A DNA stretch of 64,000 nucleotides from a virus (Duplodnaviria; Heunggongvirae; Uroviricota; Caudoviricetes). Positions 10,201 through 44,584 of the stretch are shown piece after piece; position 1 is the stretch's first letter, and each line of letters opens with the position of its first letter. The notes beneath the pieces are model-generated. The model did not search any database. It was not told where the DNA came from and worked only from the letters and a program-made list of their open reading frames with translations. Location of the stretch: positions 283,305 to 347,304 of the IMG/VR virus record IMGVR_UViG_3300031949_000001, one strand, 5' to 3'. A program made the position numbers and the translations under genes.

Positions 10201-10408
10201 TGGGGAAGCTGTGTTGTCAGGATTGCATTGGGATTCCAAAATCCACCTACTCCATAGCCCCCTTTTTCAGCTATGATAATCCAAACTTTTATCCTATAGT
10301 CCTGGTACCGGGACTTGACGGGGTACGTATTACAGTTGGCTTCGACTCGTAGAACACTGTCCGTCTACAAATCTTTGAGACAGTTAAAGCCATGACAACA
10401 CAACTTCC
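10201..10408 (-). ncRNA. Unassigned structured ncRNA (~205 nt) downstream of tRNA-Leu
   Basis: 16-bp terminal helix 10393-10408 with 10204-10219 (one G-U), followed by CCA; several internal stems; no ORF. Confidence 0.7.
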
Positions 10409-10409
10409 T

Positions 10410-10493
10410 TGGTACCAGTGAGAGGACTCGAACCTCCATGACTTTCGCCACTAGTTCCTAAGACTAGCGTGTATACCATTCCACCACACTGGC
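10410..10493 (-). tRNA. tRNA-Leu(UAG), canonical type II
   Basis: Cloverleaf, CTAGT-CTTAGGA-ACTAG anticodon arm, long V arm, A73, CCA encoded. Confidence 0.95.
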
Positions 10494-10494
10494 A

Positions 10495-10758
10495 TTACTT
10501 TTGAAATACCAACCTTTGCATCAATTCTCTTGCTCGCTTTGATGGTTGTTTCGTTAGAAATCCACCATCACGAGCCTTACTATAATCTGGTACGGATTTG
10601 AATTGTAACACAGTCGCGTCAAAAATCATACCATTTTCGTGCTTTAAAAACCAGTGAGTATCATTTTCATGCCGCATTCTCATCGGCTTCCAATCAGCCT
10701 TCTTGCCGCCAATCAAATGAAACAATGCTTCGCTAGTAACGTAGCAATTGCCTCTCAT
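10495..10758 (-). CDS. Hypothetical protein
   Basis: 87 aa ORF, GNCYVTSEAL...HWFL. Confidence 0.7.
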   Translation of the reverse strand: MRGNCYVTSEALFHLIGGKKADWKPMRMRHENDTHWFLKHENGMIFDATVLQFKSVPDYSKARDGGFLTKQPSKRARELMQRLVFQK

Positions 10759-16470: not shown

Positions 16471-16692
16471 TTACTCTTTTAACGTGTTGTCGTAAGCTAT
16501 TTTTGCGGTTTCGAAATCATACAACGCTCTTTCCTTTCCATACTCAGCCAGATCAATCTTATATTGAAGCATTTCGTATTCTTGTTGCTTCAATATTTTA
16601 TTGTATTCATCCATTGCTTGAGTGAATTCTTCATCTGTCAAATTCGTTGGAAACTCAACCGCAAAATAACCAGTTGAATCATCATAGCCCAT
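16471..16692 (-). CDS. Hypothetical protein
   Basis: 73 aa ORF; true start may lie further upstream. Confidence 0.55.
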   Translation of the reverse strand: MGYDDSTGYFAVEFPTNLTDEEFTQAMDEYNKILKQQEYEMLQYKIDLAEYGKERALYDFETAKIAYDNTLKE

Positions 16693-16985
16693 ATCAAATA
16701 TGAAAAGTTTTATTTCAGATAGAGAGCAGGTAGCTGAATAAGGAAGGAGTGGTAATATAGAGACATCTATATTGTCCAGAAACTCATAATCGAAATTATG
16801 AGCTTTAACATCTTCAAAACTGACTAATTTATATTCAGTATCATCTTTGACGATCAGTTTAATAACGGTTGAATGTTGCTTTGGATAAACCGGTTTTTAA
16901 ATTTCGGTTTCGTTGGACGGACTGGCTTTTCCATTTATTTTCCTCTGTTGACTATAGTATATAACAAGGAAACAGAAAAGTCAAG

Positions 16986-17068
16986 TGGTAGGATCGGTGG
17001 GATTCGAACCCACAAAGGGCGACTTTCTAAGAGTCGTAGCTGTACCGATTTACATTATCCACGATCCC
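16986..17068 (-). tRNA. Atypical tRNA-Leu(UAG): enlarged D region, short variable loop
   Basis: GGGATCG/CGATCCT acceptor, CGACT-CTTAGAA-AGTCG, GTGGG-TTCGAAT-CCCAC, A73-CCA. Confidence 0.85.
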
Positions 17069-17074
17069 ATGGAT

Positions 17075-17158
17075 TGGTAGGAGTGGAGGGATTCGAACCC
17101 TCAAGAACGCACCGTCTTAAGCGGTGTGGCTGTGCCAATTTACCTACGTCACACTCCC
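17075..17158 (-). tRNA. Atypical tRNA-Leu(UAA)
   Basis: CACCG-CTTAAGA-CGGTG anticodon arm, same scaffold type, A73-CCA. Confidence 0.85.
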
Positions 17159-17159
17159 A

Positions 17160-17453
17160 TTATCTTTCAATAGCAACGGTTTTCAAATTAAAAATTCCAT
17201 TCTCTTTAATAAAGACATACCCTAAAAAACATGGATAATCCTTTGCTTTTTCATTTTGATATTCAGCAGAAAATTCCACCTTCTCGTCATTAATCAATTT
17301 ATAAAAAGGAATTTCGCCTTCAATTCCTGGTATACATGGAACCAAAAATTGTTTTGGAACCATAATGTCAGGTGTCCATGTAAAGTAACCCGTTTCTGGT
17401 CTAGGTTCGTCATCCTTCACATGAGGAATCTTTAAAAATTCAGTTACGTGCAT
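17160..17453 (-). CDS. Hypothetical protein, paralog of 16186..16467
   Basis: Shared motifs; preceded by TTGACA-17-TATCTT promoter and GGAG RBS. Confidence 0.75.
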   Translation of the reverse strand: MHVTEFLKIPHVKDDEPRPETGYFTWTPDIMVPKQFLVPCIPGIEGEIPFYKLINDEKVEFSAEYQNEKAKDYPCFLGYVFIKENGIFNLKTVAIER

Positions 17454-17503
17454 AATATTCTCCTATTTGATATAAGATATCATAGGGAAGAATGCTTGTC
17501 AAT

Positions 17504-17586
17504 TGGTAGGATCGGTGGGATTCGAACCCACAAGGGTTTAGGGTTTGAGCCTAATAGCTGTGCCAATTTACATTATCCACGATCCC
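17504..17586 (-). tRNA. Atypical tRNA-Leu(CAA)
   Basis: TTAGG-CTCAAAC-CCTAA; body nearly identical to 16986..17068. Confidence 0.85.
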
Positions 17587-17618
17587 ATAATGCCTAATAT
17601 TTTGAGCGTTATATCATT

Positions 17619-17642
17619 TAATGCCTAATATATTAGGCATTA
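17619..17642. repeat. Perfect 24-bp palindrome
   Basis: TAATGCCTAATATATTAGGCATTA; extra half site at about 17588-17600. Confidence 0.85.
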
Positions 17643-17645
17643 TGT

Positions 17646-17723
<78 letters not shown>

Positions 17724-17729
17724 ATTGTT

Positions 17730-17818
17730 TGGTTGCGACAGACGGTTTCGAACACGCCCTATGCCTTTCGGACCTTCGGGTTATGAGCCCGACGAGACAG
17801 CCACTTCTCCATGTCGCA
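17730..17818 (-). tRNA. Atypical tRNA(CAU): initiator-like anticodon arm with long variable insertion
   Basis: TCGGG-CTCATAA-CCCGA, ~17 nt variable region, bulged T stem, TGCGACA/TGTCGCA acceptor. Confidence 0.7.
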
Positions 17819-17826
17819 ATTCAATT

Positions 17827-17901
17827 TGGTTGCGCAGCCTGGATTCGCACCAGGATCGATGGCTTATGAGACCATCATGCTACATCTTACACCACCGCGC
17901 A
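17827..17901 (-). tRNA. tRNA(CAU), elongator Met or Ile2
   Basis: ATGGT-CTCATAA-GCCAT; T loop TGCGAAT; CCA encoded. Confidence 0.85.
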
Positions 17902-17906
17902 ATTGT

Positions 17907-17991
17907 TGGTGAGCCGTATAGGATTCGAACCTATTCACCCGAAGGATTTGTTTTACAGACAAACGTCACTCTCCCACTTGACCGCCGACTC
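17907..17991 (-). tRNA. tRNA-Tyr(GUA)
   Basis: TTTGT-CTGTAAA-ACAAA, long V arm, A73-CCA. Confidence 0.9.
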
Positions 17992-17992
17992 A

Positions 17993-18136
17993 TTATTCAT
18001 CACCATACTTCATTCTATAACTTGTACCTCGATACCACATACCATCAACAAAGATGATAATGTTATACGCCCATCTCATGCGAGGACAATAATCAACAAA
18101 CCTTTGTTCATCTAAATACCAACAAGTGACTTCCAC
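17993..18136 (-). CDS. Small hypothetical protein (47 aa) between the tRNA-Tyr genes
   Basis: GGAG RBS, GTG start, MEVTCWYLDEQRFVDY...; below the ORF-track cutoff. Confidence 0.55.
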   Translation of the reverse strand: MEVTCWYLDEQRFVDYCPRMRWAYNIIIFVDGMWYRGTSYRMKYGDE

Positions 18137-18152
18137 TTTTCTCTCCTTAAAC

Positions 18153-18241
18153 TGGTGGGTGATAGACGGAATCGAACCTCGTGCCTAATAGGAGCGGGTT
18201 TACAGCCCACTGACAGCCCAGCCGTCCTTATTGTATCACCC
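18153..18241 (-). tRNA. Atypical tRNA-Tyr(GUA), 8-bp acceptor and 6-bp D stem
   Basis: GGGTGATA/TATCACCC, GACGGC/GCTGTC, GTGGG-CTGTAAA-CCCGC. Confidence 0.75.
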
Positions 18242-18253
18242 AATCTTTAAATC

Positions 18254-18331
18254 TGGCAACCCCGTAGAGAATCGAACTCCACACACAATGTTTTGGAGAC
18301 ATCGTCGCCTAGCCTTGGGACATGCGGGGCT
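18254..18331 (-). tRNA. tRNA-Trp(CCA)
   Basis: GATGT-CTCCAAA-ACATT, G73-CCA. Confidence 0.9.
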
Positions 18332-18349
18332 ATAATTTACATCTAAATC

Positions 18350-18426
18350 TGGTACCCAATGAGGGATTCGAACCCTCAAACTCTACGGTCTGAACGTAGC
18401 GACTTTACCAATTTATCCAATCGGGC
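18350..18426 (-). tRNA. tRNA-Leu(CAG) with short variable loop
   Basis: CTACG-TTCAGAC-CGTAG, 5-nt V loop AGTTT, A73-CCA. Confidence 0.9.
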
Positions 18427-18439
18427 GTATTTACTTCTT

Positions 18440-18524
18440 TGGTGCTCATGACAGGAGTCGAACCTGCACGCCTCTCGACATAACGCTCTCAACGTTACGT
18501 GTCTACCAATTCCACCACACGAGC
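18440..18524 (-). tRNA. tRNA-Leu(GAG), canonical type II
   Basis: TAACG-TTGAGAG-CGTTA, long V arm, A73-CCA. Confidence 0.95.
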
Positions 18525-18535
18525 ATAAACTCTTT

Positions 18536-18609
18536 TGGTAGACCGCCAGGGTAATGATCCCTGTTCTGTAGGTTAAAAGCCTACTGCATCACCTTAATGC
18601 TTGCGGTCC
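18536..18609 (-). tRNA. tRNA-Lys(UUU), atypical T loop
   Basis: GTAGG-CTTTTAA-CCTAC; T loop ATCATTA. Confidence 0.85.
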
Positions 18610-18611
18610 TC

Positions 18612-18689
18612 TGGTGGGTCCACTCGGATTCGAACCGAGACGAAATGGTTAAAAGCCATCCATGCTATGCCGTTGAACATCATGGACCC
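18612..18689 (-). tRNA. tRNA-Lys(UUU)
   Basis: GATGG-CTTTTAA-CCATT, TTCGAAT T loop, CCA. Confidence 0.9.
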
Positions 18690-18692
18690 ATA

Positions 18693-18738
18693 TAAAGACA
18701 AAAAGCCTCGGGATTTCTCCGGAGGCTTTTTGTCTTTA
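18693..18738 (-). terminator. Attenuator terminator hairpin in front of the tRNA cluster
   Basis: Perfect 17-bp inverted repeat TAAAGACAAAAAGCCTC / GAGGCTTTTTGTCTTTA with inner GGA-GAAA-TCC and U-rich tail. Confidence 0.85.
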
Positions 18739-18756
18739 TTTGTGTTTTTCTACAGC

Positions 18757-18840
18757 TTAAGTCCACAAACTCTCAGACAAAACGCCTCCCAGGCTTTTAT
18801 AGCCTAACCAGAGTTTAAGTAGTGTCAGTAGTGTTTGCAC
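18757..18840 (-). CDS. Leader (attenuator) peptide MQTLLTLLKLWLGYKSLGGVLSESLWT
   Basis: GGAG RBS at 18847-18850, GTG start, 9 Leu codons using all six synonyms; codons 18-22 are complementary to the terminator 5' arm. Confidence 0.8.
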   Translation of the reverse strand: MQTLLTLLKLWLGYKSLGGVLSESLWT

Positions 18841-18983
18841 TTGTTGCTCCAAAAAATTATGAATTTGCTTTCAATATAATTAAATTAGTTTATTTAGCCT
18901 CGCATGTGTATTTCACGTATTTCCACTCACGAGGGCGGATTTCCCGCACCACCAACTTTTCCTAAAATTGGAAACGAATTTAC

Positions 18984-19012
18984 AGCTTAGCATAGGTATT
19001 TATACAAGTCAA
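18984..19012 (-). promoter_or_regulatory. Nested early and late promoter of the tRNA operon
   Basis: TTGACT-17-TAAGCT with TATAAATA (18997-19004) inside the spacer. Confidence 0.8.
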
Positions 19013-19380
19013 GAGATTTTTTGACAACGTTTCCTAATTAAATTCAGTAGCCTTTGTTTTCCATCTTCGCCATAAAATTTAGTCTTCTCTTCTTCTTGAA
19101 TCAATCCTTCATCTGGATTGATTTTCATCAAACCCGCACGAACTCGAAACCAAGCATTATCATATGACCATGAACACGGATAACGATCATACAAAATGAC
19201 ACAACCATACTTCTTGTATGTACCACCCAACCCATTGATATCCGTTACATTCATCTCGGATTCACCTTCCATAACAACACCCGAGGCACCGTAAGGTGCG
19301 TGCTCGTCGCCTTCCATCATTTCATCATTTGCGGTTGGTATTTTGATGATTCGATCACCTGGAACTAGCTTTTCAAACAT
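19009..19380 (-). CDS. FEKLVPGD...LMKITPD family paralog
   Basis: Shared N- and C-terminal motifs with the adjacent ORFs. Confidence 0.85.
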   Translation of the reverse strand: MFEKLVPGDRIIKIPTANDEMMEGDEHAPYGASGVVMEGESEMNVTDINGLGGTYKKYGCVILYDRYPCSWSYDNAWFRVRAGLMKINPDEGLIQEEEKTKFYGEDGKQRLLNLIRKRCQKIS

Positions 19381-19679
19381 TCTGCATTCTCCTCTTCTTT
19401 CATCTTTTCGTCAGGTGTGATTTTCATGAGTTGTTGCCGAAAAAAGAAAACCTTTCCATGATTGGGGTGATTTTTAAAAATTACATAACAACCATATCCA
19501 TATAGCGTTTGATGGGAGTATTTTTCGGGATAGATAAAAGGAAGAGTTGCCTCACTCTCTTCAACTATACCACAAGCACCATTGGGGATGTCGTTCGATC
19601 TGGCTGGCGCTGGAGTAAAACCGGGAATATATGCAGGTATCTTCATAACCTGATCACCCGAAACTAGCTTTTCAAACAT
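19365..19679 (-). CDS. FEKLVPGD...LMKITPD family paralog
   Basis: Shared motifs. Confidence 0.85.
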   Translation of the reverse strand: MFEKLVSGDQVMKIPAYIPGFTPAPARSNDIPNGACGIVEESEATLPFIYPEKYSHQTLYGYGCYVIFKNHPNHGKVFFFRQQLMKITPDEKMKEEENAECLKS

Positions 19680-19988
19680 TTAATTCACCTTTTCAAGTTC
19701 TATCTCGGATTCTTCTAATTTCAAATTTTCGTCTGGTGTGATTTTCATCAAGCCAGGGCGGGCTCTGAACCAATTTTTACTTGAAGAGGGAGAGGGATAA
19801 TTCTCGAAAAAAACACTACAACCATATTGTTTATACCGTATTGTGGAATTAAAATAATAACCTTCTTTAATTCCTTCTTCAGATTTTATAATCCCACAAG
19901 CACCATACGGCACAGCAAGCTCGTTAGCCACATCACCTTCACACGGTATGTTCATAACTTGGTCATCAGGAACTAGCTTTTCAAACAT
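19680..19988 (-). CDS. FEKLVPGD...LMKITPD family paralog
   Basis: Shared motifs. Confidence 0.85.
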   Translation of the reverse strand: MFEKLVPDDQVMNIPCEGDVANELAVPYGACGIIKSEEGIKEGYYFNSTIRYKQYGCSVFFENYPSPSSSKNWFRARPGLMKITPDENLKLEESEIELEKVN

Positions 19989-20275
19989 TCTGCATTCTCC
20001 TCTTCTTTCATCTTTTCATCAGGCGTGATTTTCATCAAGCCAGGACGTTCTCTTAACCAATTACCACTCGAATGAAATTGACAGATATAATTTTCGAATC
20101 TTACTACACAACAAAGTTTTTTGACTGATGTGCCGTCGTAATTTAAGCCTTGATGTTCGGCTTCCCCTTCAATGATTTCACCGCATGCTCCATAAGGAAC
20201 ACCAATTTTATATCCATAATCACTTTCCGTGGGAATACACATTACTTGATCACCGGGTACGAGTCTTTCTAACAT
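19973..20275 (-). CDS. FEKLVPGD...LMKITPD family paralog
   Basis: Shared motifs. Confidence 0.85.
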   Translation of the reverse strand: MLERLVPGDQVMCIPTESDYGYKIGVPYGACGEIIEGEAEHQGLNYDGTSVKKLCCVVRFENYICQFHSSGNWLRERPGLMKITPDEKMKEEENAECLKS

Positions 20276-43417: not shown

Positions 43418-44584
43418 TCAAGCAAAAGATAGGTTTATAACGTCAAACGTTGCGTAATAATCGCTTGCATTTGGAGCAGCAAATGATGCCTCTTTTGTTG
43501 CAAATGGTAGAATTATTTCACCATCTTTTTTATACTTCCGACCGTGAGTTACCATAGTGTGCGGACAATAGAATAAACCACCATCAAGTTCTCCAGAGCC
43601 GCCTTTATATCCAATGAGTATTTTATCGATTGGTGTATGTGTATTATCATAATATGTTGGAAGGTATGAATACACATCAATGGAACCATTGAGTTTACCG
43701 ACGAGCATTGTACAATTCGGACCCTTGAACGATCCCTTCAAAGCCGGTGCGAATACCGCATGCTGCGAAACCTGCAAGACCGAAACCATCATCGGAGAAC
43801 ATAATATCCAATTACCAGGACCACGGTGAGTTTTACGAGCTATATCATTAGCAGTCTTGCTAATGTTTATAATGACTGACGAAAATCTATCAGCAATGAA
43901 AGCAGGCTGCTCTGGATCTTTTTTCTGAAAAATGGTAGAGAAATCAAAGTTCGGATATTTTGCACTTATGTCGATAAGTTTTTGAATGTATCGATCATCC
44001 AATTCTTGAACAAGCGCAGATGCGACTATTTCTTCCAATTCCTTTGCAGCATTCCAATCTTTGTGGTTACGTTCTAGGTTTTTAATGCAACTGACAGAAA
44101 TTCCTGTCTTGCATTTTTGAGTTAATGTGGATACATCACTAGCAACGACGTTTAATGACATAGAACGTCCACCAGTACCTTCTAGTTCAGGATTATCTTC
44201 GTACCTATATTGAAAGTAATAAACCTTTCCATCATTAGTCTTCATTGGTTGAGTACCAAGAAGTTCTTTGACAACGGTGCCTTCTGCGACATGTTTAGCC
44301 ATATTTTCATAATCTAATCCTTCAATCAAAGTACCTTCGCGCTCTCGACGGGCGACGTACTTGTGTTGATTTGTTAGAATGGCTTTTAAGTATTGCTCTG
44401 GACGACGATCTAGATACTCGGCAACTCCACTAAAATCATCCGTTTCTTCGTTATATGATTGAGTGGTGCGAAAGACAGCAGTGTCTTTTAGAAGTTCTTT
44501 CTTTTTTTCAATCCATGGATTATTTGGTATGTTTGCCATATACTTTTCCTCTTCGGTTGTAAAAGTATATAGCCCGGAAAACAC
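43418..44584 (-). CDS. T4 gp23/gp24-type capsid protein paralog (vertex-like)
   Basis: IARKTHRGPGNWILCSP, VGKLNG...VY, LIGYKG...DGGLFYCP motifs of gp23-family proteins. Confidence 0.8.
   Translation of the reverse strand: MFSGLYTFTTEEEKYMANIPNNPWIEKKKELLKDTAVFRTTQSYNEETDDFSGVAEYLDRRPEQYLKAILTNQHKYVARREREGTLIEGLDYENMAKHVAEGTVVKELLGTQPMKTNDGKVYYFQYRYEDNPELEGTGGRSMSLNVVASDVSTLTQKCKTGISVSCIKNLERNHKDWNAAKELEEIVASALVQELDDRYIQKLIDISAKYPNFDFSTIFQKKDPEQPAFIADRFSSVIINISKTANDIARKTHRGPGNWILCSPMMVSVLQVSQHAVFAPALKGSFKGPNCTMLVGKLNGSIDVYSYLPTYYDNTHTPIDKILIGYKGGSGELDGGLFYCPHTMVTHGRKYKKDGEIILPFATKEASFAAPNASDYYATFDVINLSFA

Follow-up and report, generated by a model that had tools for sequence, protein, structure and literature searches.

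A probable leader-peptide attenuator ahead of a tRNA operon in an uncultured T4-like jumbo phage

The classical leader-peptide attenuators are those of enterobacteria: trpL, hisL, leuL, thrL and pheL, together with the multivalent leaders of ilvGMEDA and ilvBN. Closest in logic to what we describe here is the pheST attenuator of Escherichia coli, in which a leader peptide controls a component of the translation apparatus for the very amino acid the leader reads. T-box riboswitches likewise link terminator read-through to the state of a specific tRNA, through a choice between antiterminator and terminator. Our subject is a 64,000-nucleotide stretch of phage DNA (the window), positions 283305-347304 of a 378,912-bp IMG/VR virus record of 41.5% GC, in which a short open reading frame (ORF) and a terminator stand directly ahead of a block of tRNA genes. 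We believe this unit is probably a ribosome-mediated (leader-peptide) transcription attenuator controlling a phage tRNA operon. An earlier note on this DNA, made from the sequence alone, knew of no described attenuator of phage tRNA genes, and our full-text search of the literature agrees: it returned no description of leader-peptide attenuation of tRNA genes, in phage or otherwise. The record's major capsid protein is of the T4 Gp23 type (main gene at genome 163844-165295), and because of this we regard it as an uncultured T4-like jumbo phage; the DNA runs containing it are soil and freshwater-sediment metagenomes. ARAGORN counts 56 tRNA genes in the whole record. What the dozens of tRNA genes in large phages are for, and how they come to be expressed, is still debated.

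The regulated block occupies 16986-18689 on the minus strand of the window, on which every feature of the unit lies, and holds 13 tRNA genes and two interspersed small ORFs. The tRNAs are Lys(UUU) twice, Leu(GAG), Leu(CAG), Trp, Tyr twice, CAU three times, Leu(CAA), Leu(UAA) and Leu(UAG). Ahead of them, just where the earlier note had placed them, are a promoter, a GGAG Shine-Dalgarno sequence, an ORF of 27 codons and the start of tRNA-Lys at 18689. The promoter (18984-19012) reads TTGACT (19012-19007), 17 nucleotides, then TAAGCT (18989-18984) with a TGn extended -10; a sigma-70 scanner missed it because its -10 agrees with the consensus at only 3 of 6 positions. Embedded in its spacer is a TATAAATA box (19004-18997). 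We tried this box as a T4-type late promoter and rejected it, since the genome has 30 copies where composition predicts about 41, and none lies ahead of the capsid gene. Then comes a 5' untranslated leader (18851-18977) of about 125-130 nucleotides, with three predicted hairpins and an AU-rich stretch.

The Shine-Dalgarno sequence (18847-18850) is six bases ahead of a GTG start at 18840, and the leader ORF (18757-18840) ends in TAA (18759-18757), so that promoter and regulated genes are separated by a short ORF that has its own ribosome-binding site. It uses all six Leu codons, as had been remarked, and 14 of the 26 residues after the start are K, L, W or Y. For every Leu, Lys, Trp and Tyr codon in the leader the block supplies a tRNA able to read it, and conversely none of its five Leu isoacceptors lacks a cognate codon there. 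The densest stretch is codons 4-15 (LLTLLKLWLGYK, 18796-18831), a cluster of control codons in which 10 of 12 are K, L, W or Y codons readable by the downstream tRNAs; for codons 4-12 alone (L L T L L K L W L), the figure of eight already claimed is correct. Codons 17-26 carry segment 2, the 5' strand of the antiterminator (18764-18791, from RNAfold helices). Segment 3 (18718-18744) is common to the antiterminator, as its 3' strand, and to the terminator, as its 5' arm. Segment 4 (18692-18713) is the terminator 3' arm, with the U-tract inside it. The intrinsic terminator (18739-18692) separates leader from regulated genes. Its place was given correctly and its length was not: in place of 17 base pairs, RNAfold finds 18 perfect pairs (18739-18722/18709-18692), a C-C mismatch, three more pairs and a UUUUUGUCUUU tract, at -31.2 kcal/mol.

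Set beside the trp, his, leu, thr and ilv leaders, the unit has a familiar look. It shares with them a short, promoter-proximal ORF equipped with a ribosome-binding site, a cluster of control codons in the first two thirds of that ORF, a terminator ahead of the regulated genes and three exclusive helices (1:2, 2:3 and 3:4). Its Leu-rich run resembles leuL, and ilvGMEDA and ilvBN are the most similar of all, using several amino acids as the phage leader does. The differences lie mostly downstream. Classical attenuators govern genes in the pathway of the sensed amino acid, for its biosynthesis or its synthetase, whereas here we find 13 tRNA genes and no biosynthetic enzymes, so that the product would act directly on the sensor. 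Phage leaders list up to 13 amino acids (in the relative G003, below), the tRNA-Lys unit has a GTG start after an untranslated leader of about 130 nucleotides, the context is a phage, and the whole of segment 2 falls within the ORF, neither spanning the stop codon nor following it. The pheST attenuator differs in having a synthetase as its target and a leader for a single amino acid; it is chromosomal and controls no tRNA genes. In a T-box, a specifier codon lets the RNA bind a single uncharged tRNA directly, with no ribosome, in contrast to the translated, multi-codon ORF proposed here, and Rfam gave no T-box match at E up to 1 within 16500-19500. Only tRNAs scored above threshold in Rfam. 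The Thr_leader family (RF00506) matched weakly at 18696-18859 on the minus strand (23.3 bits, E = 0.24, below the gathering threshold of 55 bits), which is a likeness of form only, with no sequence homology behind it.

How might such an RNA switch? We folded the transcript at growing lengths, as a nascent chain, and took RNAfold energies for each structure alone. Three mutually exclusive structures of similar predicted stability emerged: a leader hairpin (-31.6 kcal/mol), an antiterminator (-28.0 kcal/mol) and the terminator (-31.2 kcal/mol). When the RNA reaches as far as the stop codon, the ORF is predicted to fold on itself, codons 1-10 pairing with codons 17-27, in a leader hairpin that contains the control codons and holds segment 2, as an anti-antiterminator (1:2) would. 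When the terminator 5' arm is present without the 3' arm, the minimum-energy fold becomes the antiterminator, 18791-18764 with 18744-18719, predicted to lie 3' of the control codons and to exclude the terminator (2:3). Add the 3' arm, and leader hairpin plus terminator become the minimum-energy fold.

The predicted antiterminator has two outer helices (18789-18784/18726-18721 and 18782-18775/18735-18728), which are the 14-of-15 pairing claimed before, and an inner helix of 7 bp (18770-18764/18744-18738) that the claim had missed. Segment 2 is the best duplex partner of the terminator 5' arm (-23.2 kcal/mol). With a ribosome footprint masked at codon 10, the antiterminator remains the predicted fold before segment 4 is made; the earlier note had advised folding with and without a footprint, and the nascent folds switch in the order to be expected as transcription proceeds. 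One detail did not survive. The competing 1:2 hairpin had been assigned to AAAAGCCU, which in the predicted fold makes a local hairpin with UAGGCU (18806-18801/18795-18790) and does not pair with segment 2, held instead by codons 1-10.

Could all this be luck? A short ORF, the ordinary bidirectional terminator of an upstream operon and a fortuitous repeat might combine by chance, and the ingredients are to hand: bidirectional terminators of the A-tract/GC-stem/T-tract kind are common in the source genome, and short ORFs are frequent at 41% GC. We took 50 terminator-like hairpins from across the genome and compared the pairing energy of each 5' arm with its 110 upstream nucleotides against shuffled upstream sequence. 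The terminator of the tRNA-Lys unit ranked first of the 50 (antiterminator z = -5.35), and second (z = -4.40) was a terminator 36 nucleotides ahead of tRNA-His at genome 39405, so that both top-ranked terminators precede tRNA blocks. The next two high scores, at genome 78533 (minus strand) and 24848 (plus strand), belong to hairpins at the ends of ordinary longer ORFs without the leader layout, and we set them aside. Composition tells a similar story, in that, of 2503 random ORFs with 22-35 codons from the same genome, just 10 reach 54% K, L, M, W and Y (tail probability 0.004), and 6 of the 2503 contain a window as rich as control codons 4-15 (0.002). Small ORFs ahead of other tRNA genes in this genome match the tRNA set that follows at mostly 0-0.3, against 0.54 and 0.62 for the two leaders described here; the exceptions, at 0.43-0.53, are a few ORFs that lack a ribosome-binding site and a single ORF, of 17 residues, that has one. 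Given in addition that the arrangement is replicated within the source genome and in four other phage genomes, and that the unit region is more conserved than its flanks, a chance combination is very unlikely, close to negligible.

The terminator that ranked second turned out to belong to a second unit. At genome 39140-39405 there is a promoter (TTGACA, 17 nucleotides, TATAGT) with an xATAAATA box in its spacer, then AAGGA and an ATG, a terminator and tRNA-His. Its ORF (L004:519-626:+) has 35 codons and is followed by tRNAs for His, His, Phe, Pro, Phe, Glu, Gln, Glu, Ala, Pro, Thr and more. Within this downstream set fall 21 of the 34 leader residues, and 17 of the central 18 (TNAAEHTFAEAFTAPAEP), the latter matched by a single one of the 2503 random small ORFs. 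Inside the ORF, GCGCCCUU is a perfect complement of the terminator 5' arm, and nascent folds show a like switch.

The search then widened to related phages, in which the earlier note had advised looking for conserved control codons. A capsid protein query brought up 281 IMG/VR relatives at about 58-67% identity, and we took the tRNA regions from five large records, G001-G005, with 19-55 tRNA genes each. They contain seven more units: four in G005, two in G002 and one in G003, with Shine-Dalgarno sequences of AAGGA, GGAG, AGGAG or AGGA at the equivalent position. The four units of G005 share a near-identical promoter and ribosome-binding cassette and differ in ORF and terminator. At L103:9981-10079, 24 of 31 leader residues belong to the set that follows (Pro, Pro, Ala, Glu, Phe, Thr, His, Thr, Trp, Met); at L104:4382-4477, the control run RQQQSISIIRRRQVRRDSDII precedes Gln, Gln, Asp, Arg, Val, Ile, Asp and three Arg; at L104:10220-10321, the run NNVNVNNK precedes Val, Asn and three Lys; and at L102:5213-5308, the run GLGYCLSLGSLSIL precedes Tyr, Cys, Leu, Gly, Ser, Lys, Leu, Ser and Leu. 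The G002 units stand ahead of a block beginning with His (L099:6658-6795) and a Lys/Asn/Val/Ile/Thr/Ala block (L097:13617-13694). The G003 unit (L106:5174-5323) has 38 consecutive residues all within the 13-amino-acid set downstream of it. A further homologue of the His/Pro-type unit is found on contig L111. Unit G005-b also has a long 5' untranslated region.

In 7 of the 8 units tested, the best upstream partner of the terminator 5' arm lies in the last third of the ORF (-15 to -26 kcal/mol), the eighth (G002-Lys) being outside that count because the script chose the wrong hairpin; in the G003 unit, a perfect 8-bp complement of the 5' arm can be read from the sequence. Each leader's composition tracks its own tRNA set, in the seven units of the relatives and across all nine. 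When leaders and tRNA sets are paired in every possible way, the real arrangement scores highest, among 40,320 permutations for eight units and among 362,880 for nine with set size corrected, though some of the units are homologous and these tests overstate independence; the nine fall into at least five different set types. Among homologous leaders, composition is kept and residue order drifts, as selection on codon content would produce. The attenuator layout proposed for the tRNA-Lys unit has thus gained a second unit in its own genome, seven in relatives and the nine-unit permutation test, beyond the predicted folds.

The matching also bears on a different account of the same architecture, in which the attenuator reads general translation status (ribosome availability after host shut-off, amino-acid starvation via charging, or early versus late timing in infection) and the codon match is a by-product. 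It is true that the structures alone would respond to any slowing of the leader ribosome, that classical attenuators sense charged tRNA and not tRNA amount, and that the promoter module with the TATAAATA box common to tRNA units could add temporal control. A general sensor, however, needs no matching, whereas nine leaders are each enriched for their own block's amino acids, the true pairing beats all permutations, and leader composition shifts between phages when block content shifts. We consider a general-status sensor unlikely.

The promoter module deserves a few words of its own. It has the form TTGAC[AT]-N1-4-NATAAATA-...-TAtaNT and occurs at window 19004-18997, at genome 39149, 313007 and 55009, and in G005 (L101-L104), where it is a near-identical 29-nucleotide cassette ahead of four units. 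The motif TTGAC[AT]-N1-4-NATAAATA has 5 copies in the source genome, 4 of them directly upstream of tRNA genes, and the module is almost confined to sites right before tRNA genes or their leaders. Scanning IMG/VR with the promoter cassette returned only G005 itself and contig L111. Direct searches with the tRNA-Lys unit found less. Compared by blastn-short with the tRNA regions of G001-G005, the leader had no matches beyond 14-nucleotide ones at chance level; a DNA search of GenBank phages found nothing like the leader and, for the block, only generic tRNA-Met matches; and exact-pattern IMG/VR scans for the terminator and for tRNA-Lys gave no match.

The tRNA-Lys unit could be followed a short way by other means. 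The gene upstream of the leader, P0001, encodes 123 amino acids, and its stop codon overlaps the leader promoter. P0001 had no relatives in a search of IMG/VR and formed one cluster in a set of 5.8 billion proteins, which led to sister-strain contigs (L005-L007). The sister strain is 94.6% identical over 19013-18663; identity is about 94% in the tRNAs, 72% in P0001 and 86% in the genes lying farther upstream. It keeps the -35, the -10 and the embedded box (TTGACA...TATAAATA...TAAGCT). The 5' untranslated region (18851-18977) is conserved there to the same degree as the leader ORF. Contigs from four DNA runs supplied strain variants, seen in two sediment metagenomes: CTC to CTT at Leu10, synonymous and read by the same tRNA; GGC to GGT at Gly19, also synonymous, which turns an antiterminator G-C into G.U; CTG to CAG (L17Q), beyond the control run; and U to C at 18738, where a G.U pair in the inner helix of the antiterminator becomes G-C. 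The variants fit the attenuator model and are too few for covariation. A metagenome scan with a 196-amino-acid neighboring protein brought up only contigs from the same sample and no intermediate relatives of the tRNA-Lys leader.

Conservation of this kind would also suit a more modest reading, that the unit stands alone, as a small transcription unit for a micropeptide or for a small RNA of roughly 290 nucleotides, and that the block is expressed by leaky read-through or from other promoters. Promoter and terminator do bracket a highly structured RNA of roughly that length (z = -5.2), all of it, 5' untranslated region included, 94.6% conserved, and attenuator RNAs can gain second roles as small RNAs, as with rnTrpL (PMC7968998). 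Yet terminator and tRNA-Lys are 3 nucleotides apart with no promoter between them, and a separate small unit leaves unexplained the genome's strongest antiterminator signal, the like layout before the second block and the codon matching over nine units. We find this reading distinctly improbable; a small-RNA role for the terminated product could coexist with attenuation.

If the unit is an attenuator, it would work along these lines. Transcripts would begin at about 18977 from the promoter, or read in from the upstream gene, and pass into the 27-codon leader ORF. Were codons 4-15 (Leu, Lys, Trp, Tyr) read fast, the ribosome would enter segment 2 and go on to the stop codon, freeing segment 3 for segment 4; the terminator would form 3 nucleotides ahead of tRNA-Lys, and transcription would halt. 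Were the matching tRNAs scarce, the ribosome would stall and leave segment 2 free as segment 3 emerged, the antiterminator would form and the 13 tRNA genes would be transcribed. An untranslated leader would hold segment 2 in the leader hairpin, and the terminator would form. The output tRNAs (Lys, Leu, Trp, Tyr and Met) would relieve slow decoding of their own codons, and the result would therefore be a negative-feedback, demand-driven supply of tRNA.

Several observations weigh against this interpretation, beyond the homology among units already mentioned. Translation of the leader, stalling, termination and regulated read-through are all steps that we infer. The GTG start is about 130 nucleotides past the predicted transcript start, which is atypical, classical leaders beginning near the 5' end, and the intervening region is conserved. 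Both the Shine-Dalgarno sequence and the start codon are paired at the foot of the predicted leader hairpin, and initiation would therefore need to be co-transcriptional. If the ribosome waits at the stop codon, its 31-nucleotide footprint just misses the main part of segment 2 (18789-18775), which lies behind it; the block would therefore need to be steric or exerted by the moving ribosome. Only 14 of the 26 leader residues match, and the leader's own tRNA set ranks second of nine, outranked by the Tyr/Cys/Leu/Gly/Ser/Lys set of unit G005-d. Promoter-like sites inside the block, at 17502 and 16984, could supply the distal tRNAs independently. Two tRNA genes in the source genome directly follow the same type of promoter with no leader at all, and the heads of tRNA blocks examined in G001 have no leader ORF; the device is thus common in this clade and not universal. 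Finally, comparative data for the tRNA-Lys leader come from near-identical strains only, and true covariation therefore cannot be counted.

What would it mean for the phage? The broader proposal is that giant phages run a demand-sensing tRNA supply, with a translated "codon test strip" for each block past which the polymerase goes on only when decoding is slow, topping up whichever tRNAs the cell lacks. We would put this at about an even chance. If it holds, a mismatch in codon usage could cause the shortfall, as could the decay of host tRNAs once shut-off has set in. So could host anticodon nucleases, which are known to attack Lys, Tyr, Leu, Trp and initiator tRNAs. As the trigger, the tRNA-cleaving host defense put forward in the earlier note is compatible with the data, and it is speculation. 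Demand sensing would make this the first attenuator whose product is the sensed molecule, and an inbuilt counter to tRNA-targeting defense.

The phage would, in effect, measure decoding capacity codon set by codon set and make tRNAs on demand. A textbook mechanism would then extend to stable RNA genes, with direct feedback by the product. An attenuator before tRNA blocks would also make the two debated explanations, codon-usage compensation and replacement of degraded or cleaved host tRNAs, directly testable against one another. There may be a practical use too: promoter, small ORF mirroring the tRNA set and terminator together would be a signature for annotating the tRNA operons of uncultured phages and their decoding specificity.

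The block itself took some care to annotate. ARAGORN at default settings finds 10 tRNAs; Tyr (18239-18157), Leu(CAA) (17579-17504) and Leu(UAA) (17150-17079) come to light once the settings are relaxed. The program calls the tRNA at 17068-16986 Arg(ACG); aligned to its close paralogue Leu(CAA), the anticodon loop reads UAG, hence Leu(UAG), and with this the full list of 13 that had been put forward stands. Three paralogous tRNA-Leu (17579-17504, 17150-17079 and 17068-16986, with anticodons CAA, UAA and UAG) stand out by the unusual length of the D-arm region, and their variable region is short. In Rfam the first scores 23 bits as tRNA, the second only 16 bits as transfer-messenger RNA (tmRNA), and the third 37 bits, over the tRNA threshold. 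The sister strain has an HNH endonuclease gene (L007:997-1620; weak Pfam HNH_3/HNH) between its first tRNA and tRNA-Leu. Its first tRNA (L007:813-943) also differs, with an apparent insertion of about 52 nucleotides in the anticodon loop; ARAGORN in intron mode reads it as Ile(GAT), and by eye it resembles Lys(UUU).

Upstream of the unit, still on the minus strand of the window, are three tandem ORFs of about 100 amino acids (19365-19679, 19680-19988 and 19973-20275), which cross-match by blastn the part of the sister-strain contig holding the P0001 homologue. This suggests a small tandem array of related genes, of which the sister strain has fewer copies. Pfam assigned no family to nine neighboring ORFs, these three among them. 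Further along the window, at 43541-44302 on the minus strand (genome 326845-327606), there is a second, shorter ORF of the Gp23 family, with an open frame of 396 amino acids scoring 134 bits; it is probably a gp24-like vertex paralogue.

Two stretches of RNA may interest those who look for tRNA-like molecules. In G005, L101:4895-5231 has the promoter type of the tRNA units, then about 300 nucleotides of RNA that is highly structured, has pieces resembling T-arms and lacks a leader ORF, and then tRNA-Gly; the RNA could represent unrecognized tRNA-like or tmRNA-like genes. In the source genome, outside the window at 10241-10668 on the minus strand (L003:342-769), a promoter (TTGACG, 17 nucleotides, TAGAAT) is followed by about 370 nucleotides of GC-rich, ORF-free and apparently structured RNA, which had no Rfam match at E up to 1. 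A terminator comes after it, with tRNA-Thr 10 nucleotides further on, and the RNA may be a novel non-coding RNA that is co-transcribed with the tRNA.

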